The notes beneath the pieces are model-generated. The model was not told the DNA's origin. It worked only from the letters and a program-made list of their open reading frames with translations, and did not search any database. A DNA stretch of 64,000 nucleotides, from the NCBI GenBank assembly GCA_002269645.1, contig NIVC01002121.1, positions 1 to 64,000 on the forward strand. The letters are read 5' to 3'. Positions within the stretch are counted from its first letter, which is position 1, and each line of letters begins with the position of its first letter. Position numbers and translations under genes: made by a program. Source of the DNA: Macrostomum lignano (Eukaryota). This document shows positions 1,571-37,097 of this stretch, piece after piece.

Positions 1571-3043
1571 ATGGCGCGGCGCAATCCAACGGTACACAGA
1601 GACATCAAAGAAACGGTCGGTACTTTCTCGATGGAGAAAGATTTTAACACATTTGTCGACCATTTTGACCTGGTATGTAGGGAATACAACCTACAAAATC
1701 CAGAGAAGGCACAGCTGCTGCCACCTCTTCTCCAAGGTACTGCGCGAGAAATTTACGGCAAGCTGGATGCGGCAACACAGCAAAATTATCCAGCACTAAT
1801 CATTCAACTGCGCGCGCATTTCAACCGTTGCGGCACAAACAGATCAGTGCTGCTGCACAAGTTGCATAACAGAAGGATGCAAGCAACAGAATCCTTCCTC
1901 GCCTTTGTGGACGATATCCGCCAGATAATTAAGGCACTGCATCAGCCACCGCTGCAAGCTGCGGACCAACCACCACTGGGAGCGGCAGAATTGGCCGCCA
2001 GAGAAAGACAACGATTGATGGATCGTGAACAAAACCTCATCCTGCACGTAATAAACAACGCACAGCCGTCACTTCGGGATAGACTTTTGCGTGAAAATAT
2101 CGAAACCGAAGAAGACCTTTTGCGTTGCGGAATGCAATGGGAAGCCAGTGCCCCATTAATGACGACAGGCAACAATGAAGTGCAGAAACTGACGCAGCAA
2201 CTAAACAAGTTAATGCAGCACCAGACAGCTGCTATCGCCGAACAAAAAAGACGAAATGAACAAGCCTCAGCCAGATGTTACTACTGCGGACAAGAAGGAC
2301 ATTATCAGATTAATTGTCCTCATTGGTCAACAAGATACGACAAGCCGCGACAGATATTCAACAATCAGAAGCCGCAGAAACCATGGCAGCACTATCAAAA
2401 TCGCCAACAACAAGGAATGAGACGCTTCGGAAATGATAGACGCTTCGGAAATAATGACCGCTCCGGAAATGATGGCCGCTTCGGAAACGAAGGCCGCTTC
2501 AGAAGTAATGGCTACAGGCCACGCAACGTCAGATACACACAAAGACAGCCGACGCAAGCAATGCCACGATACGCGAATGCCATCACGTACACACCGGAAA
2601 ATGAACAGCAAGAACAGCAAGTGTTCACAATTGACGACTTGGAAATGGACTTCACAGTCCCGGAACTTGACATCAGCTTGATCGAAAAGAAGACGACGCA
2701 CGAGGACAACACTGACAACACAGAAGAGACGAATGAAACCGAAATGATCAAATTAAAAGAGACCACCGGAGACAGCAGAGAAAACAGGAAGAAAGTAAAT
2801 CACAAGACAAGGGAGGAGGCGGAGAGCGACATCGGCAACGAAGAAAAGATGAAAACCGGCGAAGAAAACAACTATGAATCGACAACAGTGGATGACGACA
2901 AAACGAGCATGAAAGACAAAGAAATGAAAGAAGAAGAAGAATGTAGAAGTTACGGCAACGACCACGACTGCGAGGTGCGTGATGACACGAACGACTACCA
3001 AGCCGAAAGAGGAATGCAGGAAGAACGAGAGCGGAGAATCTAA
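1571..3043 (+). CDS. gag: Gag (capsid-like domain, CCHC knuckle CYYCGQEGHYQINC, RFGN repeats, acidic linker); separated from env-pol by a 1-bp deletion
   Basis: Ty3/gypsy capsid-type N-terminus and zinc knuckle. Copy 2 reads through this point (GAACTGAGA versus GAAC-GAGA at ~3026). Confidence 0.9.
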   Translation: MARRNPTVHRDIKETVGTFSMEKDFNTFVDHFDLVCREYNLQNPEKAQLLPPLLQGTAREIYGKLDAATQQNYPALIIQLRAHFNRCGTNRSVLLHKLHNRRMQATESFLAFVDDIRQIIKALHQPPLQAADQPPLGAAELAARERQRLMDREQNLILHVINNAQPSLRDRLLRENIETEEDLLRCGMQWEASAPLMTTGNNEVQKLTQQLNKLMQHQTAAIAEQKRRNEQASARCYYCGQEGHYQINCPHWSTRYDKPRQIFNNQKPQKPWQHYQNRQQQGMRRFGNDRRFGNNDRSGNDGRFGNEGRFRSNGYRPRNVRYTQRQPTQAMPRYANAITYTPENEQQEQQVFTIDDLEMDFTVPELDISLIEKKTTHEDNTDNTEETNETEMIKLKETTGDSRENRKKVNHKTREEAESDIGNEEKMKTGEENNYESTTVDDDKTSMKDKEMKEEEECRSYGNDHDCEVRDDTNDYQAERGMQEERERRI

Positions 3044-3090: not shown

Positions 3091-6000
3091 ATGGAAAAAG
3101 AACAGGTGAAAGAAAAGCCGAGTTCCGACAGCGACGAATGCTACGAGATCCGATACAAACGAAATGGTGAAGCCTATATTCAAACGGTCGACTACAAGAC
3201 AGAGAAAAGATACCAAACGCAATGGAGTGAAACAACGGAAACATCGGAAGAAGCCGCAGACGAAGATAATGAAATAACCAAAAAGCAAAGCGAATCAGAA
3301 GCCTTCCGCCTGGATCAGCCAATGGAACAACCGAAAGAATATGATGCGGACATGGAAGATAACGAATGGCGATCGCAGCCAATGCCAGCAAGGACAACGG
3401 CAAAATCCAAGAAGTGGAAAAACTGGCTATTCTGGATCATCGTGATACTACTGATAGCAGTAGTCGCCAAAGCAACGGCAACGGAAAAGCCAATGATTTG
3501 TCCAACGGATGCGCATATCCAACCGATGATCTACAAGATACCAACCGACATCAAATGCAGTTACTTCAAGACAAACCAGACAAAACCAAAGAAGATTACA
3601 CTCGATCTCTACAAGGCTAACATCAAGAAGCATCGACAACACGGGATAGTATGCTTCAGAGACAAGCACCTGGTGGAAAAAGTTTGGCGCGGACAATGGA
3701 ACCGGATCCGATTTAAACAACATGAGCTACATGTGTCGCACGCGGAATGCCTACAATGGAATCAAACACTATTTTCAAAGGATGGTGAACTGGAACCAGA
3801 TGAGAAGGTCGGCAACGCACAGCTGTTCAGAACAAAGAATTCAGCCAACGGTCGATATATTCACTTCTTCGGAAAATGGAAAGAATATATGGCACGCAAC
3901 AGCTACTTGATCAGAAATATTCCATTCTACTACAATCCGTACGAGAAAATGGAATCGTTACAGCTGCAACTAAGCGAATGTCGATACAGTGAAGGATGGT
4001 GTCCAACGCCGATTCTACGGAAGGAAGAACTACACAGTCTACCACTGAGTCCAACATATCATCAAGACTATCGATGGCAGATTGAGCACAGAGCACAATC
4101 ACACTATGAGGAACCGTACAAATCACGACAATACTTCTTCGCGTGGGAAGTTGAGCCGGAAATTGACTGCAAGCTTCAAAAGTATCACACAGTTGAAGGA
4201 GGACTACTGTCAAATACGTTTTTGGCAAAGTCAGGAGACTTGGCACTGACGTTTCAAAAGAAACCAGTCGAGCAAAAACTGAAATGCAAGGATACAGACA
4301 AGACACTATTCATCTCGGAACAAGAGATACCAGTCTACGTAAAGGATGAAGACAAACAAACCTTCTTGGCAATCATCAATGGAACGTATCAGCAACAAGA
4401 AAAACAGAATAGAAGACGACGTGACATCGAACGTCCCAAACTGGTGTCAAACCGGCTGTTGTCAGCAAAGATAACGGCTTTGGATCACAATCTACACAAC
4501 CAGTTAAACCACTTGCATCGAACACTGGTCCAGCTAACTTGCAAAATGCACGCAATCAACTTAAATTATGCCAGACAAAACTACTATGTCAACCCTACGA
4601 TGACTTTTCGTAAAATCACCGGAATGACGAACGTTTTGGCAGTTCCAATATACGAGCATCTGTTGATATACAAGTGCACGCCGATACAGCACTTTAACAT
4701 CTTGCCGTCAAACACGTCAACAACCTGCTACGATAAGCCAAGGATTGAAGCGTTCTACGAAGGAAAACGAATTCAGGGATTCTTGGACACGGTACACAAC
4801 ATCATCGTTGGCACCGCAATACCGAGACCTTGCACCACGGCAGTAAACTACTATCAACTGGACAATGCACTACACGTCATCAAAACAACTGGAACGACAG
4901 CAAACGTCACAGAACCGGAAGTAATCGTCGACGAAAACTACGACATGGAGGATTTGAAAATCCGATTCAACAGAACGAAGTATACGCCATTCGCCGATAT
5001 CCAACTTGACGAGATAACACCAGGATGGACGATCAACGACTTCTTGCAAGCGTTCATCACCCAACGCAAGATGATTCACCAGCTGTTCACAAGAAAGGAC
5101 AAAGGAACCGGGACAGGAAGATTTCCCGTCCTTGTTTCAATGGACAGCGCCATCAAATCATTTTGGACAAATAGCTTCTGGGAGCTGCTCAATGGAAGAG
5201 GCAGTCTCTATCAAGGATTCATCTTCTACGGTGCTTGCATTGTGTGGATTGTCACGGCAATCTTCATCATTTCATCGATCGTACGGTGCTTCAGTCAAAC
5301 TTGTCCAAGAGCTAAGAAGACAGTGAATGCCATAATGCAAAGAACGACAACGGAAAGCGACAACAGTTTAGAACTAACAGAAACTGCACATTGTGAGGTT
5401 CAAGGGCAACCGACACTAGCAACGCGGCTATATCCATCGATTCCGACAACACCAACGGCACCAAGGATACAACCACCCAACTATCAAGCAGAACAGCACG
5501 AGCCAAAATGGCCGGAAAACTACGTCTGTACGCTACACGCCGAGATTGGCAAAGCAATGGCTCAGGTCATTGTCAACAACTTGCCATGTCGAGCACTACT
5601 GGATTCAGGCAGCTCGATCACAGTCATCTCGCAACAATTATGCAACAAGCTACGACTCGCGGTACGACCAGCAGCAATCGCAGTTGCAGGAGCAGGAGGA
5701 CATTCACTCAACATCCTAGGAAAAGCAGATATCGACTTGAAAATTGCTAATAAACAGCTGACGGTCCCGACGTACATCATCGACAGACTACCAAACCAAG
5801 ACGTCATCGTTGGAATCGACACGTTCAAGCAGCTTCAACTACCATTGACCTTCGACTTCAACAAGCAAACGTTTAGGATCGACACGGTGGAGCAACCGCT
5901 GATCAACCAGATTCGAGTACTACCGAAAGTAACTCTGCAGCAAGATGTCATTATCCAGCCTGAAAGCGCATGCTGGGTCAGAGCGAAAACGACCAGCGCG

Positions 6001-9000
6001 GCAGATGAAGCAATGATATTTGATCCACACAGGAGAGTCACGGCAAAACATCAAATCATGATGCCTACGGCACTAGTGCTGGTTGCAAAGGATAAGCAAC
6101 TGCCAGTACAAATCTTCAACCCGAACACAGAAACGGTTCATCTACGACAAGGAATGTGCATCGGTCATCTCAACACCCAAGCATCGGTTATGCTGATTGA
6201 ACAAGCGACTCCACGACTAACAGAGGAAGAATTTCAAAAGAAGATCAATTTGGATGACAGCCCGATTACGGAACAGCAAAAGAGGAAAGTTCGACAGCTG
6301 TTGTGGAAGTACAACGAAGCCTTCTGCCATCATGATTACGACATCGGACGAGCCAAGGACATCAAACAGGAAATCAAACTTCTGCCGCACACGGAACCAA
6401 TTCAGTGCAAGCCGTACCCGATCGCCAAGCATCTGCAACAACACTTTGACGAAATCATCGATAAAATGCTAAAGCACGGCATCATCAGCAAAGCTATTTC
6501 GGCTTACTCCTCACCGTGCCTACTGGTACAGAAGAAGGAGACAAACGAAAGACGACTCGTATGCGACTTCAGACTGTTGAACAAGTACATACCGACGGAT
6601 CAGCAAAGCCTACCGAAGATCTCCGAACTACTAGCAAAGCTCAACACGGCAAAATTGTTCACGGTGTTCGACCTACGTCATGGATTTTGGCAAATTGAAA
6701 TCGAGAAAGAGTCACGACAGTACACGGCTTTCAAAACCTACAATGGACAAGTATACGAGTACAATCGATCGCCGATGGGACTTAGCAACAGCCCAGCAAC
6801 GATGAGTCGACTAACAGCATACATGCTAGCAGGATGCACGAACCTGCTGCACTATGTCGACGACATTTTAGCCTACGGAGAGGATTTCGAGCGACTCTAC
6901 GAAGCTACGGAGAAGGCCCTAGCGCTCATTCAACGCCAAGGTCTGAAGCTACAACCAACTAAATGCAAATTCTTCCGAGACAACGTGCGTTACCTGGGAC
7001 ATCAGGTGACAGCCAAAGGAATCTCACCGGACCCAGACAACGTGGAAAAGGTGAAGAAGTTTCCTACGCCAACCAGTATAACGAAGGTCCAATCATTCCT
7101 TGGACTTGCGCAATACTTCAGGAAGTTCTTACCTAACTTCGCAAAGACAGCAAAGCCACTGTACGACCTGCTCAAGTTCGACAAATGGAAGCAAGACAAC
7201 TGGACACAGAGACAACAGGAAAGTTTCGACGAAATCAAACGACAGCTGACATCAGACGCACTGCTACAGCATCCGGACTTCGACAAGCCCTTCATCATCG
7301 AGACAGACGCCTCAGGAACGGGACTCGGAGCAGTCCTACTACAGGAAACCGAGGACAAGAAGGAACGACCTATTGCCTACGTCAGTCGAGCACTCAAACC
7401 AAATGAAACAAAGTGGTCAGCTACGGAACGAGAGCTACTAGGAGTCTTGTTCGCCCTGCGACAGTTTCATTACTACATCTATGGTTCTCCAATACAGACG
7501 ATAGTACGCACGGATCATGCACCATTGACCTACGTCGTAACTACAAAAGGACAGACCAACAACCGACTCATCAGAATGACACTCAAGATCCAGGATTACA
7601 ACTACAAACTCGTCTACAAACCAGGAATTACCAACAAAGCCGCGGACGCCCTGTCAAGAGCCTATGAAGTCAACGCCATTCATCCAATCCCTAACATCAA
7701 GGAGTTGGTGGATGAAACCGAGCGCGACAACTTCTACCAAGCGGTTAAAGACGACGACAAGAACATCAAACTCAGTCCCATGGAACGAAAATTCCTACGC
7801 AAGCAACGACAACACCTAACAATCAATAAGTCACGGCTCTACTGGATGAGCGACAATAAACCCAAGATCTACATACCATATTCGTTTCGGCAAGCAATTC
7901 TCAACGAGCTACACGACAACCCACTCGCTGGACACCTGTCGGCAGCAAAGACCATCGCGAGAGTGGAACAATACTACTTTTGGCCAACTATGTACGGCGA
8001 CATCAAGCAGTATTGCAACAACTGCCATTCATGTGCTGCATCAAAGACAGGACGACGACAGAAACCGCAGCTACAGTCCATTCCGAAGTCGACTACAATG
8101 GACTGTCTAAGCATCGACATCACCGGACCGCTACCACCGAGCTGTCTCCAGGGCATCGCCTACACCTACATTCTAACCGCCTTGGATATCTTCTCGAAGT
8201 TTGCTATCGCCATACCGATACCGGACATCACAGCTCAGACAGTGGCAATGAGTTTCTTCAACGAAATCATTTGCAAGTACGGCACGCCGAAGAACCTCAC
8301 ATCGGACAACGGATCGCAGTTTACATCGCAACTGTTTCAGCAAGTCGTAAGGATTCTCAACATTACGCAGATCTACACATCGACCTACAATCCGAAGGCA
8401 AACATGGTTGAACGGTTTCACCGCAACCTGCACGAGATGATTACACATTTCGCGCACCAACAGCCGGAAGACTGGATCATCTACCTGCAATCTGTAACAA
8501 TGGCCTACAACAGCGCTATTCATCGATCAACGGACAATACGCCATTCTTCCTAATGTTTGGACGAGACTTCCAACCGCCGAATCTGCTCGCACAGCAATT
8601 GCTACCATCGCAGTACGTGGAAGTACCGACTTCCATTCAGAAATTCGTCACGCAACTACACCTCGCATGGAAGATCGCCAAGCACAACATTGACAACCAG
8701 GTGGCTCTGACCACCGGCAACGACGCGAGATCGACAACCCTGACGGCCGGCGACATCGTCTACCTACACTACCCGCCACAGCAGACGCATAAACATGCAC
8801 AGAAGTACAAAGGACCCTATCGAGTGGTCCAACTAACGTCACCAACAACGGCACGCCTGGCTAATGTACAAGATCCACATCAGCACCAGTTCTACGTACA
8901 CATTCATCGACTAAAGAAGATCAACACTGACACAGCGACGTTTCTACCGACATTAGACAACGCTGATCGCACGCGTTCAACGAACCGCCACATCGCGACG

Positions 9001-9066
9001 AAGCACGAGGAGACTCAAACGACAGATGTGAGCCAGCCACATGGCTACAACCTACGACCACGCTAG
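3091..9066 (+). CDS. pol: Env-Pol polyprotein: signal peptide, class III-like fusion glycoprotein, TM, then PR, RT, RNase H, integrase
   Basis: LLDSGS (5602), YVDD (6853), ETDASG, HHCC, D-D-E (DITG/DNG/VER), GPY, terminal YNLRPR. Upstream: hydrophobic WLFWIIVILLIAVVAKA, RRRR site at 4411, TM at ~5218-5283. Confidence 0.93.
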   Translation: MEKEQVKEKPSSDSDECYEIRYKRNGEAYIQTVDYKTEKRYQTQWSETTETSEEAADEDNEITKKQSESEAFRLDQPMEQPKEYDADMEDNEWRSQPMPARTTAKSKKWKNWLFWIIVILLIAVVAKATATEKPMICPTDAHIQPMIYKIPTDIKCSYFKTNQTKPKKITLDLYKANIKKHRQHGIVCFRDKHLVEKVWRGQWNRIRFKQHELHVSHAECLQWNQTLFSKDGELEPDEKVGNAQLFRTKNSANGRYIHFFGKWKEYMARNSYLIRNIPFYYNPYEKMESLQLQLSECRYSEGWCPTPILRKEELHSLPLSPTYHQDYRWQIEHRAQSHYEEPYKSRQYFFAWEVEPEIDCKLQKYHTVEGGLLSNTFLAKSGDLALTFQKKPVEQKLKCKDTDKTLFISEQEIPVYVKDEDKQTFLAIINGTYQQQEKQNRRRRDIERPKLVSNRLLSAKITALDHNLHNQLNHLHRTLVQLTCKMHAINLNYARQNYYVNPTMTFRKITGMTNVLAVPIYEHLLIYKCTPIQHFNILPSNTSTTCYDKPRIEAFYEGKRIQGFLDTVHNIIVGTAIPRPCTTAVNYYQLDNALHVIKTTGTTANVTEPEVIVDENYDMEDLKIRFNRTKYTPFADIQLDEITPGWTINDFLQAFITQRKMIHQLFTRKDKGTGTGRFPVLVSMDSAIKSFWTNSFWELLNGRGSLYQGFIFYGACIVWIVTAIFIISSIVRCFSQTCPRAKKTVNAIMQRTTTESDNSLELTETAHCEVQGQPTLATRLYPSIPTTPTAPRIQPPNYQAEQHEPKWPENYVCTLHAEIGKAMAQVIVNNLPCRALLDSGSSITVISQQLCNKLRLAVRPAAIAVAGAGGHSLNILGKADIDLKIANKQLTVPTYIIDRLPNQDVIVGIDTFKQLQLPLTFDFNKQTFRIDTVEQPLINQIRVLPKVTLQQDVIIQPESACWVRAKTTSAADEAMIFDPHRRVTAKHQIMMPTALVLVAKDKQLPVQIFNPNTETVHLRQGMCIGHLNTQASVMLIEQATPRLTEEEFQKKINLDDSPITEQQKRKVRQLLWKYNEAFCHHDYDIGRAKDIKQEIKLLPHTEPIQCKPYPIAKHLQQHFDEIIDKMLKHGIISKAISAYSSPCLLVQKKETNERRLVCDFRLLNKYIPTDQQSLPKISELLAKLNTAKLFTVFDLRHGFWQIEIEKESRQYTAFKTYNGQVYEYNRSPMGLSNSPATMSRLTAYMLAGCTNLLHYVDDILAYGEDFERLYEATEKALALIQRQGLKLQPTKCKFFRDNVRYLGHQVTAKGISPDPDNVEKVKKFPTPTSITKVQSFLGLAQYFRKFLPNFAKTAKPLYDLLKFDKWKQDNWTQRQQESFDEIKRQLTSDALLQHPDFDKPFIIETDASGTGLGAVLLQETEDKKERPIAYVSRALKPNETKWSATERELLGVLFALRQFHYYIYGSPIQTIVRTDHAPLTYVVTTKGQTNNRLIRMTLKIQDYNYKLVYKPGITNKAADALSRAYEVNAIHPIPNIKELVDETERDNFYQAVKDDDKNIKLSPMERKFLRKQRQHLTINKSRLYWMSDNKPKIYIPYSFRQAILNELHDNPLAGHLSAAKTIARVEQYYFWPTMYGDIKQYCNNCHSCAASKTGRRQKPQLQSIPKSTTMDCLSIDITGPLPPSCLQGIAYTYILTALDIFSKFAIAIPIPDITAQTVAMSFFNEIICKYGTPKNLTSDNGSQFTSQLFQQVVRILNITQIYTSTYNPKANMVERFHRNLHEMITHFAHQQPEDWIIYLQSVTMAYNSAIHRSTDNTPFFLMFGRDFQPPNLLAQQLLPSQYVEVPTSIQKFVTQLHLAWKIAKHNIDNQVALTTGNDARSTTLTAGDIVYLHYPPQQTHKHAQKYKGPYRVVQLTSPTTARLANVQDPHQHQFYVHIHRLKKINTDTATFLPTLDNADRTRSTNRHIATKHEETQTTDVSQPHGYNLRPR
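3424..5283 (+). other. env: Envelope glycoprotein domain (gB-like class III fusogen) embedded between gag and protease
   Basis: Signal peptide, Cys-rich ectodomain (CRYSEGWC), furin site, long amphipathic helix ending LTC..NP, CYDKP and RPCT motifs, C-terminal TM. Confidence 0.8.
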
Positions 9067-9186: not shown

Positions 9187-9855
9187 ATGGGCAACGCACT
9201 GTCGAAACAGGCGCCCCAGCCTCAGCAGCTATATGACTGCCCGATATGTTTAACTGATGACTTGGCTGTCAAGCCACCGACTATTTGCATCAATGGACAT
9301 AAAGTTTGCGGACAATGTTTAAGTGATTCACACTATATTCAGCCCTGGCAGAGTTGTCCCCTCTGTAGAGATAGTTTGCGACAATGTGCCTATTGTTATT
9401 CTTGGCGCACGTTTCAATATTGTAACCACCAACATTTTATTTGCATGCACTGTTTGAAGCAAACCGCTAGTAGGGGCATTATAGGATGCCCCTTATGTAA
9501 CAGTATGCCCCGCGAAAACACTTTTAAGAAATGGTGTCGGATTATACCTGACCCAGCGCGTTGTTTATCCGTTTACACTATGCACACCTTAACCGCTATG
9601 AGTATCGAACGGCGGCTGGAGTTTTGGCCTGTACCTCGCTTCGTTCAGCGGTCGCGACGACAGCTACTATTATATGCTCATAGAAATCAAGGATTTTTGC
9701 GTCATTTGTCACCCTTGGAGATTGAGCGACATTTGCGGCAGTTTTTGCATGACCACGAATCATTTCACTGGACGCTACACGTATACTGCCACGCGCTTAA
9801 ACGATTAGTGCTCTCACGTAGCTATTTTATTTGGCTTTTTAGGTCTCACCGATAG
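9187..9855 (+). CDS. RING-A: tandem C3HC4-type RING protein with N-terminal MGNALSK myristoylation motif
   Basis: CPIC..CINGHKVCGQC..CPLC and CAYC..CNHQHFICMHC..CPLC; conserved in several copies. Confidence 0.85.
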   Translation: MGNALSKQAPQPQQLYDCPICLTDDLAVKPPTICINGHKVCGQCLSDSHYIQPWQSCPLCRDSLRQCAYCYSWRTFQYCNHQHFICMHCLKQTASRGIIGCPLCNSMPRENTFKKWCRIIPDPARCLSVYTMHTLTAMSIERRLEFWPVPRFVQRSRRQLLLYAHRNQGFLRHLSPLEIERHLRQFLHDHESFHWTLHVYCHALKRLVLSRSYFIWLFRSHR

Positions 9856-9925
9856 AACATATGCTTGTTACGTATCTTGAATAATCCTCAATCGTTCTAA
9901 CTATACCTATACCTATCGCCCACAG

Positions 9926-10557
9926 ATGACCGAGATGGATACCTGCCCCTGCTGCCTCGAGGCACGGAGCCGATGCTCCCGACTTGTGAATGGGGGCACC
10001 AGGTGTGCTTCCCCTGCGACGAGCGGGCGCGAGAAATTGGCGACGTGACGATCCTTACCGCCTGCCCCGTCTGTCGCAGACCGCGGGTCCAATGTGCCCT
10101 TTGCGGCGACCAGCCCAATGTACGACTCTGTTCAAATCGGCATTGGGTGTGTTTCAGCTGTCTTCAGCGGTACGGTGCACGAGACATCATGACGTGCACC
10201 GTGTGCCTGGCTCCGCTGTCCAACACAGCATCCGTACTACTGGCACCGATGCTCGCCGTACCGGAGCTAACGCTGGCGGAGCCGGATGAGCTAACCCTGG
10301 AACAGCTGGCCGTCGCCGTACGAACGTGGCCATGGCCGCTTCAGCATCAGGCCGACTGGCGGTGGTTACTAGACATCGCCAGGACTATGGTGCGTACAGC
10401 AGAACCGCTTACGACCATAGAGGCCTATCTGCTTTTGCTGGAGCGGACCGAGGATCCGCGATTCACTAAGTTTCAGTCGCTGTACTGGGCAGTGGCATCC
10501 CTGGTGGCGCGAACCACGCATCAGGTGAGCAGCCTGCTCAGGACAAGCTTCGGCTGA
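9926..10557 (+). CDS. RING-B: tandem RING protein, paralogue of RING-A (1-bp deletion at ~9965 in this copy)
   Basis: CPCC..CEWGHQVCFPC..CPVC and CALC..CSNRHWVCFSC..CTVC; intact 210-aa version at 37098-37730. Confidence 0.8.
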
Positions 10558-10760
10558 ATGCCTCGGCAGCAGCGCGAGGACAGCAGGTATCCCCGGCAGA
10601 AGACATGATTAACTTTAACTGAGCGTGGACTCAACACCACTAACCTTTATTAACACACAATGTATATTACGTGCATATATGTTAATAAAGAGAATTATGT
10701 AACCAATTTAAAGTTAAAGTATGGAATAATTCAATTACCCAAGATTTTTATTTCATTGTT

Positions 10761-10799
10761 AAAACTCGGGACGAGTTTTTTCGTAAAAAAGGGAGATTT
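10761..10799 (+). promoter_or_regulatory. Hairpin AAAACTCG-GGA-CGAGTTTT followed by polypurine tract AAAAAAGGGAG
   Basis: Directly precedes each family-G 3' LTR seen with its internal flank. Confidence 0.8.
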
Positions 10800-11663
10800 T
10801 GTAGAGTGTTCTACCTCCCGTTAAAAAAGGAAAAAAGAAGATAATCGTATAATACTACTATAAGTAAGTAAGTACACGCATGTGCGCCTAAGCTTTGAAT
10901 GAATCACGCTACCAGAAAAAGATGTTACCAGAATAATACGCCATGAGCCATTTTCCCCTTTTAGCGCAACACGTGAATTGTCATGATACTATTTTGGATC
11001 AAAAACTTGTCTATAAATACAAGCGATCTGAAGCGGTACCGGAGCCATTCTCCCCACGGAAGAGGAGCGCTCCGAAGAGGAAGCCTTAGGAGGACTTCCT
11101 GATCTACCAAGTCAATCGAGACTCGGTCGAGTTGTTGCGGTAAGCCTTCCTTATTTGCGCCCGTTGTGTTAGAGACGTCTCGCTCAAGTCTATTGAGACT
11201 TGAGTCTAATTGAGTCTGTTGAGACTCTTGAGTCTGTTTAGACTCCATTGGTTGCAGTCTCCAGAAGGACTGCCCCTGATAGATCTTAGAGGACTATCAG
11301 TGGTTTCCGGAGCTATACCTAGAGTGCATAGAGGCACTGCTAGAAGAAGGAGGCTTAATTTAGACCGCAGTTTGGCGCAGGGTACCCATTGTTGCTACGA
11401 GGCCTCTGATTGGTCCTGACGGAAGATACCGGCCGGAAGAACTTATCGGAAGTACAAGAGGAACCAGGACCAGAGCAACTGAAGAATCAAGGCGCCTGAT
11501 CTACGAGATCTACTGACAAGTTCCTAGCGAGAACTACTCAAGAAATTCAAATCCGGATTAAAGGTAATTGAATACCTTCGTTTGACTTACTGGGTTGCCT
11601 AGCTGTTGAGCTAGAAGTGATTGTTCCTTGATTATCGAAAGTCGGGTAATAAGGAACACATCA
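10800..11663 (+). repeat. 3' LTR, subtype A (864 bp)
   Basis: TGTAGAG...CATCA, preceded by PPT. Confidence 0.95.
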
Positions 11664-14450
11664 CTCGGACTCATCAACAACGCGAAAGCAAGGATCATTG
11701 TTCGTGAGGATTACTGTCCGAAGTTTCACAAGAGCAGACCTGTACCGTTTGCAATGAAGAAGCTTATTGAGGACGAACTCAATAACCTTGTCAACGAAGG
11801 GATCATATCAAAGCTGAGTTCATCAGATTGTGCTTCTCCCATTGTGCCAGTGCTGAAGAAAGATGGGAAATCAATCAGGATCTGCGCGGACTTCAAGAGG
11901 ACTATGAATCCACAGCTGGAAGTGGACAAGTATCCACTGCCTCGACAGGAGGAAATGTTTGCTACTTTGAATGGTGGGAAGTACTTTTCCAAGCTGGACA
12001 TTTCTCAAGCTTTTCTGCAGCTGGAGTTGGAAGAAAGCAGCAGAAAATTTACGACCATCAATACACACTTGGGATTGTATCAGTACAATCGACTAACAAT
12101 GGGCTTGGCTTCTGCTCCTGCTCAGTTCCAAGAAGCGATTGAGAAAATTCTCTGTGGACTGGAAGTTGTTGCTTACATCGATGATATTCTAATATCGGGA
12201 AGGTCACTCGAGGAACACGATCAGAAACTGCATAAAGTGTTGAAGACACTGCAATACAGGGGTGTCAGACTCAACAAGGACAAGTGCAAGTTTCGGCTGC
12301 AAAAAGTAGAATTCATGGGTCATATTATCAATAATGACGGACTGCACCCATCTCCTGACAAGGTAATTGCTGTGAGAAACGCACCGAATCCTACCAGTGT
12401 GTCCGAGGTTCGATCCTTGGTTGGACTTATTAACTACTATGGGAAATTCATACCCAACTCATCAACTGTTCTGGCGCCACTCAACCGACTCCTGAGAAAC
12501 GATGTGACATTCAGCTGGAGCAGTCAGTGCCAAGCTGCTTTGGACTCTGTGAAGTCAATTCTGACATCGGACCGGCTGCTGGTGCATTTCGACCCAAAGA
12601 AGCCGATCATCCTACACACTGATGCTTCGAAGTATGGGCTCGGATGTGTTCTGTCCCACACAATGCCAGGTGGTGCCGAGCTGCCTATCAGTTACGCATC
12701 AAGGACACTGTCACCAGCGGAGCAGAATTATTCTCAGCTGGAAAAAGAAGCGCTATCAATCATATTCGGGATCAAGAAGATCCATCAGTATCTATTCGGG
12801 AACAAGTTTATTTTGGTAACAGACCATAAGCCTCTAATTACTATTTTCGGAGAAAAGAAGGACATCCTGAGCATCGCAGCTAGCAGATTGCAACGTTGGG
12901 CAGTCTTGCTCTCTGCTCATCAGTACGAGATAAGATTTCGAAAGACAGAGGACCATGGCAACGCTGATGCGTTATCCAGGTTGCCATTGCCAAGTTCGAC
13001 GTCCCGAGTGGACAAAGTCATGGAACGTCGACTTCAAGAACTGCCTATCACCGCTGTCGAGATTCGTCGAGAGACAGCCAGGGATCCTATCCTGAGCAAG
13101 GTAATCAGGTTCTGCCAGAACGGTTGGCCGGAGAAATGTGAATTTGAGCTTGAGATATACCGTCAGAAAGGAAACGAACTCTGTCTTGAGCAGGGAGTCA
13201 TCTTCTGGGGTATACGCGCCATCATTCCATCTAGCCTCCAACACCAAGTTTTGGACCTGCTGCACGAAGGACACCCTGGGATTGTATCGATGAAATCGAT
13301 CGCTCGCCTGCACGTTTGGTTTCCGGGAATCGACCAACAGATTGAAAGAGCTGTGAAACAATGCAAGGGATGCGAACTGCAGCGAAGCAAACCACCAGAA
13401 TCTGCTGTTCACCCGTTGAGTTGGCCAGAAAAGCCATGGACGAGACTTCAGGCAGATTTTTTCGGACCGTGTTTCGGATTCAATTGGTTGGTAATCGTGG
13501 ATGCCACATCAAAATGGGTAGAGGTTTTTCCAATGAAAGTTTCCAGTGCCGCGAACACCATTCAACGCTTTCGAGAGACATTTGCTCGGTTTGGAATACC
13601 TCGACAGATACTGACCGACAATGGAAGCCAGTTTGCATCACAGGAGTTTGCTGAATTCACCAAGCGAAATAACATCCATCACATCTTCAGTGCTGTAGGA
13701 CATCCAAGAACCAACGGGCTCAGTGAGCGAATGGTTCAAACAGCCAAGAATGCGATCAGAGCAGGCATGAAGAGCCACGGTGATGCCATGCTGAGCCTGC
13801 ACAATTTCCTATTCCGCTATAGAAGCACGCCTCATAGCACGACGGGCAAGTCACCTGCCGAGATGATGCTTGCGTATGCAAGACGGACAAAGCTGGACTT
13901 CCTGAAGCCAGACACATACGGGAGAGTCCTGGATTCGCAAAGTAAGCAGATGATGCGCCGGGAACATATTCCTCACCGAGAGTTTCAGGCTGGAGATATA
14001 GTGCTAGCTCTTGATTTCAGGAGGGAAAAAGAAAACAAGTGGGCTCAAGCCAAAGTGTTGAAACAGACTGGGCCGCTGTCCTACCACGTGGAAGTCAACG
14101 GACGAATCTGGAAACGACACGTGGATCATCTGATCAAATCTGAAACCGAAGTTGTGCCCCAGCCACAGTGTGATTTCGACACAGAACTAACGCAAGCACA
14201 CAATGCCAAGAATAGCTACAAGTTGAAAAAGGATGCAAAAGAGGAAGCTGAATCGACGGGACCAAATCTAGAGCATCATGGTCAGACTGGCAAGTCTTCG
14301 CGGGCCATAGACAAAACTCGAAAGTTAGCCGCGTCATCAAGCTTCGATATCAAGCCAAAGGACGGCCAAGATGTCAAACAGCATCCGAACCAACGTGTTT
14401 TGCGTGACCGGTCAAAACTGAAGAAACCGGATTTTTTTGTTGCGAATTAA
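11664..14450 (+). CDS. pol: 5'-interrupted pol (RT-RH-IN) of an unrelated Mag/K02A2.6-like gypsy element
   Basis: RPVPFA, DKYPLP, YIDD, TDASKYGLG, LHEGHPG..C..C, TDNGSQF, ERMV. The true 5' boundary is the family-G LTR end. Confidence 0.9.
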   Translation, partial: LGLINNAKARIIVREDYCPKFHKSRPVPFAMKKLIEDELNNLVNEGIISKLSSSDCASPIVPVLKKDGKSIRICADFKRTMNPQLEVDKYPLPRQEEMFATLNGGKYFSKLDISQAFLQLELEESSRKFTTINTHLGLYQYNRLTMGLASAPAQFQEAIEKILCGLEVVAYIDDILISGRSLEEHDQKLHKVLKTLQYRGVRLNKDKCKFRLQKVEFMGHIINNDGLHPSPDKVIAVRNAPNPTSVSEVRSLVGLINYYGKFIPNSSTVLAPLNRLLRNDVTFSWSSQCQAALDSVKSILTSDRLLVHFDPKKPIILHTDASKYGLGCVLSHTMPGGAELPISYASRTLSPAEQNYSQLEKEALSIIFGIKKIHQYLFGNKFILVTDHKPLITIFGEKKDILSIAASRLQRWAVLLSAHQYEIRFRKTEDHGNADALSRLPLPSSTSRVDKVMERRLQELPITAVEIRRETARDPILSKVIRFCQNGWPEKCEFELEIYRQKGNELCLEQGVIFWGIRAIIPSSLQHQVLDLLHEGHPGIVSMKSIARLHVWFPGIDQQIERAVKQCKGCELQRSKPPESAVHPLSWPEKPWTRLQADFFGPCFGFNWLVIVDATSKWVEVFPMKVSSAANTIQRFRETFARFGIPRQILTDNGSQFASQEFAEFTKRNNIHHIFSAVGHPRTNGLSERMVQTAKNAIRAGMKSHGDAMLSLHNFLFRYRSTPHSTTGKSPAEMMLAYARRTKLDFLKPDTYGRVLDSQSKQMMRREHIPHREFQAGDIVLALDFRREKENKWAQAKVLKQTGPLSYHVEVNGRIWKRHVDHLIKSETEVVPQPQCDFDTELTQAHNAKNSYKLKKDAKEEAESTGPNLEHHGQTGKSSRAIDKTRKLAASSSFDIKPKDGQDVKQHPNQRVLRDRSKLKKPDFFVAN

Positions 14451-26477: not shown

Positions 26478-28750
26478 TGTAGAGTGTTCTACCTCCCGTA
26501 AAGAAGACATAAAAGTGTTAATGTACTACTCACACATTTTATTTAGTAGTAAATTGAAGAGCATGAATAAAAGTATGCTTTGAACTATAAATATATTCGT
26601 ACTAACCAATAGGAAGAGAGAGACCTCGAGCATGCTAAATTTAGAAATCACCCAATCACGTGTAACCTGCACTTATCAAACTCAAACCCCAGGAGAAATG
26701 CATCATTCAACCGTACGCACGTGAACCAATCAAATGTAACTAAAAATAACTCGAATGCGATAACCAATCATGCGTTTTTACACTAAACCAATGGAGTAAC
26801 TTTCTAACCTGCCATGTTTGACAGCAACCAAACCGTGACCCCTTTTGACAGTTGAAGAGTTGGACCCACGTGACATCATGAGGGTCCATTTGCCTATAAA
26901 TACAAGTGGTCCGGAACGGACCCGGAGCCACAATTCCTCTGGAAGGAGAAGAGCTCCGAAGAGGAAGCCACAGTCGGACTTCCTGGACCAAGACTCGGTC
27001 GGTTGTTGCGGTAAGCCTTCCTTATTTGCGCCCGTTGTTGTTAGAGACGTCTCGCTCAAGTCCAGTGTGACTTGAGTTTGGTTTGAGTCTGTTGAGACTC
27101 TTGAGTCTGTTTAGACTCTACTGGTTGCAGTCTCCAGAAGGACTGCCCCTGATAGATCTTAGAAGACTATCAGTGGTTTCCGGAGCTATTGTAGAGTGTT
27201 CTGCCTCCCGCAAAAACATAAAAAAGAAGATAATCGTATAATACTACTATAAGTAAGTAAGTACACGCATGTGCGCCTAAGCTTTGAATGAATCACGCTA
27301 CCAGAAAAAGATGTTACCAGAATAATACGCCATGAGCCATTTTCCCCTTTTAGCGCAACACGTGAATTGTCATGATACTATTTTGGAGCAAAAAGTTGCC
27401 TATAAATACAAGCGATCTGAAGCGGTACCGGAGCCATTCTCCCCACGGAAGAGGAGCGCTCCGAAGAGGAAGCCTTAGGAGGACTTCCTGATATACCAAG
27501 TCAATCGAGACTCGGTCGAGTTGTTGCGGTAAGCCTTCCTTATTTGCGCCCGTTGTGTTAGAGACGTCTCGCTCAAGTCTATTGAGACTTGAGTTCATTT
27601 GAGTCTGTTGAGACTCTTGAGTCTGTTTAGACTCCACTGGTTGCAGTCTCCAGAAGGACTGCCCCTGATAGATCTTAGAGGACTATCAGAGGTTTCCGGA
27701 GCTATACCTAGAGTGCAGAGAGGCACTGCTAGAAGAAGGAGGCTTAAATTAGACCGCAGTTTGGCGCAGGGATCCCATTGTTAATTCGGAAGCTTCCCAT
27801 TGGTCCGAGCGACAGAATCCGGCCGGAACTATTTGAAGAAGAAAGAAGAATCGGACCCGATCTACAAACGAAAGTCAGAAGTGACTACACCTGCAACTAA
27901 AGCAAATCGAGAACTACTCCGAGAGATCTCCAAAGGACTCAAGGTAATTGAATACCTTCTGTTGACTTACTGGGTTGCCTAGCTATTGAGCTAGAAGTGA
28001 TTGTTCCTTGATTATCAAGAGTCGGGTAATAAGGAACACATCAATTGGTGATCTCGCCCTCTCGGCACTACTCAAACTTTTGAGCAATAGCCTGGCCAAG
28101 CTATTGTTAAGTGACGAGAGAGCGACTTCATTAATTTTGCGCGCACGTGTTAGAGTTAACACTTTTGAAGTCCGAACGTTTTGAAACTCGAGTAAAAATT
28201 TTGGTGTACAGGTTTGAGCACCTGTCAATTTTGAGTACAGTTTGAGCACGCGTGTTAATTTTTGTTTTAACGAGCTCGAGCAAGTGTGAGTTTAAAACAA
28301 AACCGAAATTAACTTCGTCGGTACACTGAAAACAAACCGAAAATAAAAGAATCGTCGACGCAAAACAAACAAAAAATAACTGAAACATTTTGGCCGGCAC
28401 AAAAACTAAAACCGAAATTAATTGAAACTTCGTGAAGAGCGGAGTTAATTGACAAAGAGAAAGAATCACAGACGAAAAAAAGCCTTTACAAAGCAAAAAG
28501 ACAAGTCCATCCCAACTTGAAGATACACTTTGCGGGACGCCGCATAAGTGCGAAATCAGCAAGCGAACAGAACAAGTTCATTTGAGGACAACCAGTGGCA
28601 GCAAGCCGCAACTTCGAGGCCAGCGAATAACAAATCGACACCACAAGGCAATTCGTTACAGTCGAGGTTTATTCCGAGGCAAACACCACACTGGACGATC
28701 CGTTACAAATCGATCCAGATCTTGAACTACCGTTCTATCCTATCAACAAC

Positions 28751-31700
28751 ATGGCGCGGCGCAATCCAACAGTACACAGAGACATCAAAGAAACGGTCGG
28801 TACCTTCTCGATGGAGAAAGATTTTAACACATTTGTCGACCATTTTGACCTGGTATGTAGGGAATACAACCTACAAAATCCAGAGAAGGCACAGCTGCTG
28901 CCACCTCTTCTCCAAGGTACTGCGCGAGAAATTTACGGCAAGCTGGATGCGGCAACACAGCAAAACTACCCAGCATTAATCATTCAACTGCGCGCACACT
29001 TCAACCGCTGTGGCACAAACAGGTCAGTGCTACTGCACAAGTTGCATAACAGACGGATGCAGCCAACAGAATCCTTCCTGACCTTCGTGGACGATATACG
29101 TCAAATAATTAAGGCACTGCATCAGCCACCGCTGCAAGCGGCGGACCAACCGCCACTGGGAGCGGCAGAATTGGCCGCCAGAGAAAGACAACGATTGATG
29201 GATCGTGAACAAAACCTCATCCTGCACGTAATAAAACACGCACAGCCGTCACTTCGGGATAGACTTCTGCGTGAAAATATCGAAACCGAAGAAGACCTTT
29301 TGCGTTGCGGAATGCAATGGGAAGCCAGTGCCCCATTAATGACGACAGGCAACAATGAAGTGCAGAAACTGACGCAGCAATTAAACAAGTTAATGCAGCA
29401 CCAGACAGCTGCTATCGCCGAACAAAAAAGACGAAATGAACAAGCCTCAGCCAGATGTTACTACTGCGGACAAGAAGGACATTATCAGATTAATTGTACT
29501 CATTGGTCAACAAGATACGACAAGCCGCGACAGATATTCAACAATCAGAAGCCGCAGAAACCATGGCAGCAATATCAAAATCGCCAACCACAAGGCATAA
29601 GACGCTTCGGAAATGATAGACGCTTCGGAAATAATGACCGCTCCGGAAATGATGGCCGCTTCGGAAACGAAGGCCGCTTCAGAAATAATGGCTACAGGCC
29701 ACGCAACGCCAGGTACGCACAAAGACAGCCAACGCAAGCAATGCCACGATACGCGAATGCCATCACGTACACACCGGAAAATGAGCAGCAGGAACAGCAA
29801 GTGTTCACAATTGACGACTTGGAAATGGACTTCACAGTCGCTGAACTTGACATCAGCTTGATCGAAAAGAAGACGACGCACGAGGACAACACCGACAACA
29901 CAGAAGAGGCGAATGAAACCGAAATGATCGAATTAAAAGAGACCACCGGAGACAGCAGAGAAAACAGGAAGAAAGTAAATCACAAGAAAAGGGAGGAGGC
30001 GGAGAGCGACACCGGCAACGAAGAAAAGATGAAGACCGGCAGAGAAAACAACTATGAATCGACAACAGTGGATGACAGCAAAACAAGCACGAAAGACAAA
30101 GAAATGAAGGAAGAAGAAGAATGTATGAGTTACGGCAACGATCACGACTGCGAGGTGCATGATGACACGAACGGATACCGAGCCGAAAGAGGAATGCAGG
30201 AAGAACTGAGAGCGGAAAATCTAAGTTCCGACAGCGATCAAGGCTACGAAATACAATGGAAAGATGAAGAAGTGGAAAAAGAACAGATGAAAGAAAAGCC
30301 GAGTTCCGACAGCGACGAATGCTACGAGATCCGATACAAACGAAATGGTGAAGCCTATATTCAAACGGTCGACTACAAGACAGAGAAAAGATACCAAACG
30401 CAATGGAGTGAAACAACGGAAACATCGGAAGAAGCCGCAGACGAAGATACTGAAATAACCAAAAAGCAAAGCGAATCAGAAGCCTTCCGCCTGAAACAGC
30501 CAATGGAACAACCGGAAGGATATGATGCGGACATGGAAGAAAACGAATGGCGATCGCGGCCAATGCCAGCAAAGACAACGGCAAGGTCCAAGAAATGGAA
30601 AAACTGGCTATACTGGATCATCGTGATACTACTGATAGCAGTAGTCGCCAAAGCAACGGCAACGGAAAAACCAATGATTTGTCCAACGGATGCGCATATC
30701 CAACCGATGATCTACAAGATACCAACCGACATCAAATGCAGCTACTTCAAGACAAACCAGACGAAGCCGAAGAAGATTACACTCGATCTCTACAAGGCTA
30801 ACATCAAGAAGCATCGACAACACGGAATAGTGTGCTTCAGAGACAAGCACCTGGTGGAAAAAGTTTGGCGCGGACAATGGAACCGGATCCGATTTAAACA
30901 ACATGAACTACATGTGTCGCACGCGGAATGCCTACAATGGAATCAAACACTATTTTCAAAGGATGGTGAACTGGAACCAGACGAGAAGGTCGGCAACGCA
31001 CAGCTGTTCAGAACAAAGAATTCAGCCAACGGTCGATATATTCACTTCTTCGGAAAATGGAAAGAATATATGGCACGCAACAGCTACTTGATCAGAAATA
31101 TTCCATTCTACTACAATCCATACGAGAAAATGGAATCGCTACAGCTGCAACTAAGCGAATGTCGATACAGTGAAGGATGGTGTCCAACACCAATTCTACG
31201 GAAGGAAGAATTACACAGTCTACCACTGAGTCCAACATATCATCAAAACTATCGATGGCAGATTGAGCACAGAGCACACTCACACTATGAGGAACCGTAC
31301 AAGTCACGACAATATTTCTTCGCATGGGAAGTAGAGCCGGAAATTGACTGCAAGCTTCAAAGGTATCACACAGTGGAAGGAGGACTACTGTCGAATACGT
31401 TTTTGGCAAAAGCAGGAGACTTGGCCTTGACATTTCAAAAGAAGCCGATCGAACAGGAACTCAAATGCAAGAATACGGACAAGACGCTGTTCATCTCGGA
31501 GCAAGAAATACCAGTCTATGTAAAGGATGACGACAAACAAACCTTCCTGGCGATCATAAACGGAACGTATCAACAACAAGAAAGGCAACGACGCGACATA
31601 GAACGTCCACGATTGGTGTCGAACCGTCTACTGTCAGCAAAGATCACTGCGCTGGATCACAACCTGCATAACCAGCTAAACCACTTACACCGGTCACTGG

Positions 31701-34700
31701 TTCAGCTAACTTGCAAAATGCACGCAATCAACTTGAACTACGCAAGACAGAACTACTATGTCAACCCTACGATGACATTTCGCAAGATCACGGGAATGAG
31801 AGAGGTTCTGGCAATTCCGATATATGGACATCTCCTGATATACAAGTGTACGCCGATACAGCACTTCAACATCTTACCGTCGAACACTTCAACAACTTGC
31901 TACGACAAGCCGAGAATTGAAGCATTCTACGAAGGCAAAAGAATACAAGGATTCTTGGACACGGTACACAACATCATCGTTGGCACCGCAATACCAAGAC
32001 CTTGCACCACTGCAGCAAACTACTATCAACTGGACGATGCACTACATGTCATTAAAACGACAGGAACGACAGCGAACATTACAGAACCAGAGGAAATTGT
32101 CGATGAAACGTACGATATGGACGATCTGAAGATACGATTCAACAGAACGAAGTACACACCATTCGCCGACATCCAACTCGATGAAATAACACCCGGATGG
32201 ACCATCAACGACTTCTAGCAAGCGTTCATCACTCAACGAAAGATGATTCGTCAACTCTTCACACGAAAGAATAAAGGAACGGGAACACACAATTTCGCGG
32301 TCCTTGTGTCGATGGACAACGCCATCCAATCGTTTTGGACAAACAGCTTCTTGGAGCTGCTTAACGGAAGAGGCAGCCTATATCAAGGCTTCATCTTCTA
32401 CAGCGCCTGCGTTGTTTGGATAGTCACGGCGATCTTTATCATCTCGTCGATAGTACGATGCTTCAGCAACACTTGCCCCACAGCGAAACGAACAGTGAAC
32501 GCCATCATGCAGAAGATACCAAGGGAAGAAGACAACAACTTGGAATTAACAGAGGATGCACGTCAAGAAACTCAAGGACAACCGACACCATCAACGCGAA
32601 TGTATCCATCGATTCCGACAACACCAACAGCACCGAGAATTCAGCCACCTACTTATCAGCCTGAACAACACGAGCCAAAATGGCCGGAAAATTACGTCTG
32701 CACGCTACACGCCGAGATTGGCAAAGCAATGGCTCAGGTCATTGTCAACAACTTGCCATGTCGAGCACTACTGGATTCAGGCAGTTCGATCACAGTCATC
32801 TCGCAACAATTGTGCAACAAGCTACGACTCGCGGTACGACCAGCAGCAATCGCAGTTGCAGGAGCAGGAGGACATTCGCTCAACATCCTAGGAAAAGCAG
32901 ATATTGACTTGAAAATTGCTAATAAACAGCTGACGGTCCCGACGTACATCATCGACAGACTACCAAACCAAGACGTCATCGTTGGAATAGACACGTTCAA
33001 GCAGCTTCGACTACCATTGACCTTCGACTTCAACAAGCAAACGTTTAGGATCGACACGGTGGAGCAACCACTGATCAATCAGATTCGAGTACTACCGAAA
33101 GTAACTCTGCAGCAAGATGTCATCATCCAGCCTGAAAGCGCATGCTGGGTCAAAGCGAAAGCGACCAGCGCGGCAGATGAAGCAATGATATTTGATCCAC
33201 ACAGGAGAGTCACGGCGAAACATCAAATCATGATGCCTACGGCACTAGTGCTGGTTGCAAGGGATAAGCAACTGCCAGTACAAATCTTCAACCCGAACGC
33301 GGAAGTGGTTCATCTACGACAAGGAATGTGCATCGGTCATCTCAACACTCAGGCATCAGTTATGCTGATTGAGCAAGCGACTCCACGAATAACGGAGGAA
33401 GAGTTCCAAAAGAAAATCAACCTGGACGACAGCCCGATTACGGAACAACAAAAGAAGAAAGTTCGACAACTGTTGTGGAAGTACAACGAAGCCTTCTGCC
33501 ATCATGATTACGACATCGGACGAGCCAAGGACATTAAACAGGAAATCAAGCTTCTACCGCACACGGAACCAATTCAGTGCAAGCCGTACCCGATCGCCAA
33601 GCATCTGCAACAACACCTTGACGAAATCATCGATAAAATGCTAAAGCACGGCATCATCAGCAAAGCAATTTCAGCCTACTCCTCACCGTGCCTACTGGTA
33701 CAAAAGAAGGAGACTAACGAAAGACGACTCGTATGCGACTTCAGACTGTTGAACAAGTACATACCGACGGATCAGCAAAGCCTACCGAAGATCTCCGAAC
33801 TACTAGCGAAGCTCAACACGGCAAAACTGTTCACGGTATTCGACCTACGTCATGGATTTTGGCAAATAGAAATCGACAAGGAATCGCGCCAGTACACAGC
33901 TTTCAAGACCTACAATGGACAAGTCTACGAGTACAATCGATCGCCGATGGGACTTAGCAACAGCCCAGCAACGATGAGCCGACTGACAGCATACATGCTT
34001 GCAGGATGCACGAACCTGCTGCACTATGTCGACGACATTTTGGCCTATGGAGAGGATTTCGAGCGACTCTATGAAGCTACGGAGAAGGCCCTGGCGCTCA
34101 TTCAACGCCAAGGTCTTAAGCTGCAACCGACGAAATGCAAATTCTTCCGAGACAACGTGCGTTACCTAGGACACCAAGTGACAGCCAAAGGAATTTCACC
34201 GGACCCAGACAACGTGGAGAAAGTGAAAAAGTTTCCTACGCCAACCAGTATAACGAAGGTCCAATCATTCCTTGGACTTGCGCAATACTTCAGGAAGTTC
34301 TTACCTAACTTCGCAAAGACAGCAAAGCCACTGTACGACCTGCTCAAGTCCGACAAATGGAAGCAAGACGCCTGGACACAGAGACAACAGGAAAGTTTCG
34401 ACGAAATCAAACGACAGCTGACATCAGACAAACTGCTACAGCATCCGGACTTCGACAAGCCCTTCATCATCGAGACAGACGCCTCAGGAACGGGACTCGG
34501 AGCAGTCCTACTACAGGAAACCGAGGACAAGAAGGAACGACCTATTGCCTACGCCAGTCGAGCACTCAAAACAAATGAAACAAAGTGGTCAGCTACGGAA
34601 CGAGAGCTACTAGGAGTCTTGTTCGCCCTGCGACAGTTTCATTACTACATCTATGGTTCTCCAATACAGACGATAGTACGCACGGATCATGCACCATTGA

Positions 34701-36238: not shown

Positions 36239-36358
36239 AGTTTCGAGAACAACCCCGTGTAGTGACCGGGATAAAGAATAGCACTACAGCTTCGCAAGCT
36301 TGTCGTAAAAGGCGACTAATCCGAGCGACACAAAGACAGCGACAAATTGACGACAATT

Positions 36359-37027: not shown

Positions 37028-37097
37028 AACATATGCTTGTTACGTAACTTGAATAATCCTCAATCGTTCTAACTATACCTATACCTATCGCCCACAG

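Follow-up and report, generated by a model that had tools for sequence, protein, structure and literature searches.

Do env-carrying gypsy elements outside insects leave cells? Cell exit of such elements has been argued from intact genes and folds, and GAG-ENV-POL elements with a gB-type Env are described from nematodes, bryozoans, and flatworms (accessible text of PMC13524379). The question is addressed here with a 64,000-base stretch of Macrostomum lignano DNA (the window, analyzed at its full length). An earlier, sequence-only reading had noted three ESCRT late-domain motifs in it, placed them in the cytoplasmic tail of an Env protein, and proposed that budding is driven from this glycoprotein tail rather than from Gag. 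The three late-domain motif classes and their partners are set out in PMC519032, as far as its accessible text goes, together with their occurrence in retroviral Gag: PTAP/LYPxnL in HIV p6, PPxY in MLV and RSV, YPDL in EIAV, and double motifs in M-PMV and HTLV-1.

The element is a Ty3/gypsy retrotransposon with a gB-type Env

Copy 1, which lies on the plus strand, is a retrovirus-like Ty3/gypsy LTR retrotransposon (Metaviridae). Its 5′ LTR (1 to 854) begins just upstream of the window and is 99.8% identical to 10808 to 11663; the 3′ LTR spans 10799 to 11663. The primer-binding site (PBS), TGGTGATCTCGC (857 to 868), follows 2 bases after the 5′ LTR. Gag (1571 to 3043) consists of a capsid, one CCHC knuckle, and an acidic spacer, and Pol has the order PR-RT-RH-IN. 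A frameshift near 3.0 kb, absent in the other copies, splits gag from env-pol. The env-pol frame of 2026 aa encodes TM1, ectodomain, TM2, linker, protease, reverse transcriptase (RT), RNase H, and integrase. Unbroken Gag-Env-Pol frames exist in natural copies, with lengths of 2538 and 2535 aa (L031 and L032) and also of 2503 and 2502 aa, the last from what we call the 51% family (L034).

TM1 (3427 to 3483; hydropathy, 2.41) is an internal signal-like helix with a basic front, and the A-x-A at its end is a predicted signal peptidase site. Behind it lies an Env ectodomain of the herpes gB type (class III; 3481 to 5190), with an RRRR furin-like site at 4411 to 4422. A profile built from the ectodomain together with 49 relatives matched herpesvirus gB chains at an E value of 3e-15; the match to PF24664 (E value, 3.7e-5) was below the Pfam cutoff, and a single-sequence search of solved structures with Env gave no match. 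TM2, the Env anchor (5215 to 5283; hydropathy, 2.43), is followed by the linker, by an aspartic protease (5563 to 5832, DSG at 5602; PF13650 and PF13975), and by RT, RNase H, and integrase up to the stop (6529 to 9066; PF00078, PF17919, PF17917, PF17921, and PF00665).

A gB-type ectodomain and an env gene placed after gag and before pol, with a membrane helix on each side, are features of the GAG-ENV-POL HSV/gB-type errantiviruses. Matched by description rather than by sequence alignment, the family is most likely the published Platyhelminthes_Rhabditophora_Mlig_errantivirus_2, whose entry gives the same PBS 12-mer, the same gene order with a gB-type Env between two helices, an 863-base LTR, and 16 intact copies (accessible text of PMC13524379). 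The fit covers the PBS (the 12-mer is also common to the 51% family), LTR length (about 864 bases), env class, host, and copy number, with at least 109 matches in the host genome (G000), 18 of them at 100%. The copy listed for the entry is about 1.1 kb shorter between the LTRs than copy 1 (PMC13524379). Only two near-identical protein homologues were found by word-indexed search, and a 99% identical protein is labeled Macrostomum lignano.

Two accessory open reading frames (ORFs) follow pol: a RING-like ORF (9187 to 9855; PF13639, E value 2e-4) and a paralogous cysteine-rich ORF (9901 to 10557), the front of which is broken in copy 1. The pair is also found after pol in the 51% family, and further window copies lie at 20709, 36359, 57386, and 62957. 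The first ORF starts with MGNALS, as in copy 1, or MGNAQS (MGxxxS, myristoylation-like) in five window copies and is without a late-domain motif. A membrane-bound RING protein near ESCRT motifs is reminiscent of arenavirus Z or host membrane E3 ligases. The segment from 9509 to 10750 was skipped in contigs of two of four sequencing runs, and two more had loose ends at 9509; an element variant without most of the accessory ORFs thus seems to exist. Directly after the 3′ LTR of copy 1 (11610 to 14450), a different gypsy-type RT-RH-IN frame of 946 aa begins. Altogether, 45,776 of the 64,000 window bases match the family of copy 1, and all 45 matches of at least 80 bases lie on the plus strand. 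Such nesting of fragments in a single orientation resembles a uni-strand piRNA-cluster-like locus or a site of self-targeting insertion.

The motifs lie in the linker that joins the Env anchor to the protease

The motif block of copy 1, LYPSIPTTPTAPRIQPPNY (5428 to 5484, plus strand), holds LYPSI, an ALIX-type motif of the form hydrophobic-YPx[L/I] (5428 to 5442), the TSG101-type motif PTAP (5452 to 5463), and the Nedd4/WW-type motif PPNY (5473 to 5484). YPSI had been taken as a variant of YPxL, in agreement with Vincent 2003, whose title, as cited in PMC2171039, describes YPxI as an ALIX-type variant. The two further blocks reported earlier were confirmed on the plus strand: LYPSIPTTPTAPRMQPPTY starts at 16959 (to 17015) in copy 2, which is 81% identical and lacks gag and the front of env, and MYPSIPTTPTAPRIQPPTY starts at 32600 (to 32656) in copy 3 (27189 to 38826), which is 94% identical and has gag in frame with env and two in-frame stops. 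Shuffling of the 96-residue linker brought all three motif classes together in 4 of 200,000 cases.

All three motifs sit in a linker of about 80 to 96 residues from TM2 to the protease, inside one Gag-Env-Pol frame. Hydropathy and domain order predict that Gag is cytosolic, that TM1 leads the ectodomain into the lumen, and that TM2 returns the chain, so that the linker and Pol are cytosolic. No stop follows the Env tail, and the frame runs into protease, RT, RNase H, and integrase. Given this predicted topology and the frame order, the motifs lie behind the Env anchor, in a linker and not at a C terminus. The description as an Env cytoplasmic tail is therefore apt for the predicted cytosolic side and the place behind the anchor, but the segment is not a free tail. 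Canonical motifs are thus present in a variable region that faces the cytosol by predicted topology. The Gag-Env frames of P0023, P0056, and P0063, three distant proteins, seem to end after the tail; there, the motifs (PPAY and IYPSL in P0056) would lie in an Env tail that really is C terminal, and Pol would have a frame of its own.

The linker also holds candidate sites for the element's protease. TVNAIMQ (5320 to 5340), 13 residues after TM2, is invariant in 7 of 7 columns, with seven synonymous and no nonsynonymous variants among 30 haplotypes, and a second such word, YVCTL (5521 to 5535), lies at the protease start. The VNAI word recurs at the RNase H/integrase border. A pattern derived post hoc from TVNAIMQ matches the 2026-aa chain five times, in each case at a domain border or close to one, and the matches include this VNAI and the VCTL at the protease start. 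By analogy with Ty3 polyprotein processing, the VNAI- and VCTL-like words may be protease sites, and maturation would then turn the motif segment into a p6-like peptide about 65 residues long. No conserved late-domain motif was found in Gag of the family of copy 1. A YPAL in Gag was rejected as a late domain: it lies within the capsid fold and is not conserved, relatives having YHTL or YPNM.

The block is conserved under selection within the family

In every pair of the three window copies, 17 of the 19 residues of the block were identical, compared with 14 to 18 of the 27 residues ahead of it and 3 to 4 of the 5 residues after it. The claim that the flanks diverge around conserved motifs holds for the linker, but not for the protease start behind it, where 56 to 60 of 60 residues were identical. 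Because they are 81 to 94% identical in DNA, the three copies alone are weak evidence of conservation. In all, 57 copies (window and G000 loci) were read, a part of the at least 109 matches picked to span the identity range; 54 of them kept all three motifs. The exceptions were one with PPAP for PTAP and two that were frameshifted within the block.

A check on selection, as had been proposed, was run on 30 distinct haplotypes. Nonsynonymous and synonymous variants numbered 10 and 17 in the block and 38 and 20 in the adjoining linkers (Fisher P = 0.019). A slightly different haplotype set gave 7 and 15 against 32 and 19 (P = 0.021), with 17 of 22 invariant columns in the block against 11 of 32 in the linkers (P = 0.003); the haplotypes are related, which makes these P values optimistic. 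Frameshifted copies disturbed the ectodomain/TM2 columns in one set and the protease columns in the other, and the motif and linker columns were unaffected. The x of PPxY differed between copies (N, T, G, or I); its P, P, and Y had silent variants only. As judged by these variant counts, the motif block is under purifying selection relative to its linkers.

Conservation of this kind might also come from a nucleotide-level signal or from structure at the N terminus of the protease, the motifs themselves being chance products of a proline-rich linker. Consistent with this, seven codon columns within YPSIPTTP (5434 to 5454) were without silent variation in the 30 haplotypes (shuffle P = 0.03), and several YPx[L/I] words lie 36 to 62 residues upstream of the catalytic Asp. 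However, the PTAP and PPxY codons do vary silently, the RNA fold under the block had a z score of −0.34, and the second frame over the block was not conserved (stop-free lengths of 27 to >100 codons among copies). Neither an RNA fold nor an overlapping frame accounts for the silent run of seven codons.

Motif order and class change between env families of the genome

Seven of the eight env families scored in G000 carry a motif in the TM2-protease linker; L037 and L125 were too broken and were left out. The linker of the 51% family is only 27% identical to that of copy 1 and has PTAP followed by IYPKI, the swapped order, in five of six copies read; the sixth, the unbroken L034, has PNAP for PTAP plus IYPRI. 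PSAP was present in all six copies read of the 29% family. Other linkers contain PSAPP and LYPTL (P0006, a Macrostomum lignano protein), PSAP and IYPTI (L123/126/127), PSAPP and LYPTI (L129), or LYPKI only (L121/122/128/130), and that of L124 has no motif. Motif order and class are shuffled between the families, which points to repeated gain and loss under selection.

Such changes also bear on the origin of the linker, which could be the old p6-like end of Gag, cut off from it by the insertion of env between nucleocapsid and protease and keeping, now or formerly, a Gag-type role independent of Env. Lentiviral p6 sits ahead of the protease, relatives carry PPxY on the Gag side (PPPY or PPAY ahead of TM1 in the 51% family), and Gag of one env-less family in G000 (L107/L111/L143) ends in PTAP, inside a double-coding stretch. 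Yet a p6-like end inherited from Gag fits poorly with the differences in order and class between families, and among distant proteins, the env-less knuckle-to-protease segments, which are few and short as controls, had a motif in 0 of 14 cases versus 15 of 41 for the Env-protease linkers (Fisher P = 0.006; by length, P = 0.03). We regard a purely Gag-inherited role as very unlikely; the reading concerns origin and is compatible with a role of the linker in scission from Env-Pol. In the same env-less gypsy family (L143:1993-2800), Pol starts with a cold-shock domain (PF00313; E value, 1.3e-6), with a coiled region before the protease.

Late-domain motifs are enriched in the linkers of distant relatives

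The search for distant relatives scanned 1.84 billion representatives and gave 164 matches, the best 150 of which were used. A fixed rule was applied to 153 proteins. Env, TM2, and protease were present in 44, from which 3 of the family itself were removed to leave 41; 20 had Env and TM2 without protease (17 kept, with at least 60 residues), and 14 were the env-less knuckle-to-protease proteins. The rule set aside 41 protease fragments, 25 proteins with Env but no TM2 call, 5 whose Env was unscored, and 4 that fell into no class.

P(T/S)AP, PPxY, or YPx(L/I) occurred in 15 of the 41 linkers, against 2.5 expected from whole shuffles (P ≤ 0.0005) and 2.6 from 12-residue local shuffles, in a search whose query held the motifs and may favor motif-bearing matches and whose copies are not independent. 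With the proteins lacking a protease included, the count was 20 of 58 (3.5 expected), and each class alone was significant (P ≤ 0.0015). Relatives matched by the ectodomain alone had motifs in 11 of 34 linkers (2.1 expected); PTAP and YPxL were significant in this subset, but PPxY was not (2 versus 0.76; P = 0.17). When P0006 and two motifs near TM2 were removed, 17 of 55 linkers remained positive, with 3.3 expected and a shuffle maximum of 9. Motif density per 1,000 residues and class was 1.1 to 1.5 in the linker and 0 to 0.24 in ectodomain, Pol, and Gag; it was 5- to 30-fold lower in the other regions of the same proteins. Late-domain-type contexts were also in excess (P[TS]APP, 5 versus 0.05; hydrophobic-YPx[LI], 6 versus 0.46). 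Control motifs were flat (other YxxPhi, 34 versus 31.6; P[^TS]AP, 3 versus 2.8; PPx[FW], 2 versus 2.2). Of 20 distant proteins checked for a species label, three had one: P0006 (Macrostomum lignano) and two motif-bearing proteins labeled as nematode, from Acrobeloides nanus (P0081) and Caenorhabditis tropicalis (P0089).

These counts weigh against chance in a proline-rich linker, since local shuffles and permuted decoys fall short of them and the lone high decoy, [TS]APP, overlaps PTAPP in five of seven cases. Together with the results on the RNA fold, the second frame, and the silent codon changes, this largely refutes chance or nucleotide constraint as the explanation, which we consider most improbable.

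Lack of conservation in distant relatives had been named as a result that would speak against late domains. The enrichment stands on one side, and on the other, 26 of the 41 distant linkers have no canonical motif. On a quick env tree of 57 rows, a motif was present in 24 and absent in 33, with 14 changes, at least 9 of them forced by strong branches; the Gag regions of motif-less relatives do not compensate. The motif label was somewhat clustered (10 of 500 shuffles were as low), and one supported clade of seven had no motif in any member. The motifs are conserved under selection and independent of position among relatives, yet absent from most of the distant set.

The same motifs work in cargo sorting of cell proteins. 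In the element, they could recruit ESCRT and Nedd4 to sort Env-Pol or to turn it over, by sending it to multivesicular bodies or lysosomes, where surplus Pol would be trimmed, or by bringing it to the assembly site. Translation of one frame would give Gag and Pol at 1:1, and two RING-like ORFs follow pol. No splice joint was seen within gag-env-pol in contigs of four of four runs; this is a weak point, as the runs are presumed to be RNA and their contigs cover gag-env-pol but show neither expression level nor absence of splicing. However, general sorting signals were not enriched, neither the YxxPhi controls nor acidic dileucine (7 versus 5.7), and pairs of different motif classes co-occur in one linker (4 versus 0.1), as in viral late domains. 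A role in sorting or turnover is therefore unlikely in our view. At this single site, YPSI might still be a plain YxxPhi endocytosis signal, a class that was not enriched.

The host genome encodes candidate TSG101- and ALIX-type partners

A TSG101 UEV gene (E value, 7e-39) and genes with ALIX-type V domains are present in the host genome. Aligned to human TSG101, the host UEV domain keeps Y68 and M95 and has H in place of Y63; these three residues have roles in the binding pocket, and the change at Y63 counts against the late-domain reading. The predicted complex of the host UEV domain and the linker peptide scored 0.39 versus 0.04 for the best control, with a partner pLDDT of 43 to 45 and 69% contact agreement. 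In a benchmark without peptides, passes with scores of ≤0.60 were seen for 5 of the 78 solved pairs and for every one of the 4 mismatches that passed. The score likely stems from likeness to solved TSG101-PTAP complexes, and the prediction lends weak support to TSG101 binding. Overall, the motifs are very probably working ESCRT/Nedd4 ligands. A tandem repeat between TSG101 exons (L132:2091-2606) reads IYPSIPPDPH in one frame, like the YPSIP of the element, which is probably a coincidence.

A proposed model for scission from an Env-Pol precursor

With the selection, the enrichment, and the flat controls, the motifs behave as selected late-domain motifs, and to this extent, their earlier description as ESCRT late domains is borne out. 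They probably serve as a late domain for the scission of enveloped particles from a membrane-anchored Env-Pol precursor. The element has a single frame for the chain Gag-TM1-gB ectodomain-TM2-linker-PR-RT-RH-IN. TM1 is predicted to act as an internal signal that leads the ectodomain into the ER lumen, with Gag and linker-Pol staying in the cytosol. Cleavage by signal peptidase would leave two products at 1:1, namely, Gag, held to the membrane by TM1, and Env-Pol, a type I membrane protein. Gag would form the shell, and the Env-Pol linker would recruit ESCRT to the neck of the bud, with budding either from the plasma membrane or into an endosome and with TSG101, ALIX, and a Nedd4-type ligase as candidate partners in scission. 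During maturation, the element protease may cut the VNAI- and VCTL-like words, which would free the p6-like peptide and leave a short Env tail. Since the linker that would recruit ESCRT is on the Env-Pol chain, scission would depend on Env and Pol both being present.

Late domains recruit the scission machinery and do not bend the membrane. The contrast drawn earlier between glycoprotein tail and Gag is correct in that Gag is without a conserved motif, but it is too sharp: Gag-Env-Pol is one polyprotein, the motifs lie in an Env-protease linker between protease-site-like words, and relatives have PPxY on the Gag side.

Foamy virus budding is Env dependent, with PSAP in Gag and separate genes, and the flavivirus capsid is tethered by the signal helix of the next protein, with no Pol inside the particle. 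The element would resemble the former in needing Env for release and the latter in its capsid-signal anchor. The three motif classes are also those of retroviral Gag, where they cluster in a disordered spacer that lies ahead of the protease and is likely freed by it; unlike there, the spacer of the element is on the Env anchor, separated from Gag by two helices and the ectodomain, and is present once per Pol chain (compare the accessible text of PMC519032). Bluetongue virus NS3 is a natural membrane protein that uses PSAP and PPRY for exit, but it is nonstructural, does not act as a fusogen, and has no polymerase fused to it (accessible text of PMC7409164). EABR/p9 fusions engineered onto glycoprotein tails (a CEP55 segment and p9) released enveloped particles, and few or no particles were obtained with HIV p6 or Ebola VP40 1-44 attached to a spike tail; these fusions also recruit ESCRT from a fusogen tail but, unlike the element, are artificial (accessible text of PMC10121106).

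The Gag-Env-Pol order, the element class, and probably the family were already known, and late domains themselves are textbook knowledge. For the motifs in the TM2-protease linker, no earlier description was found in open-licence PMC and bioRxiv, where a search for papers on late domains in Gag-Env-Pol elements gave none. Sacco 2022 (doi 10.1099/jgv.0.001739) is said to have described such elements first in nematodes and may discuss the polyprotein. The terms "late domain," "ESCRT," "cytoplasmic," "budding," and "single ORF" do not occur in the main text of PMC13524379, and the accessible part of PMC12801592 mentions neither late domains nor env.

The class-wide excess of motifs at one cytosolic position is an independent line of sequence evidence for a step of membrane scission, and it names host factors in a species that is amenable to RNAi and whose genome carries numerous near-identical copies. 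It also offers a natural example of a retro-transcribing element whose late domains stand behind a class III fusogen. Gag-Env-Pol elements, as far as can be judged from sequence, likely exit cells as enveloped particles, and an extracellular stage of this element is suggested. More tentatively, and with slightly more doubt than belief, the Gag-Env-Pol elements of flatworms, nematodes, and other invertebrates may be budding, enveloped, retrovirus-like agents made from one twice-membrane-spanning capsid-fusogen-polymerase chain, in which Pol enters the particle as the tail of Env and the call for ESCRT has repeatedly, and with differing sets of motifs, been placed on the Env-Pol linker, so that only particles with both Env and Pol would be released.
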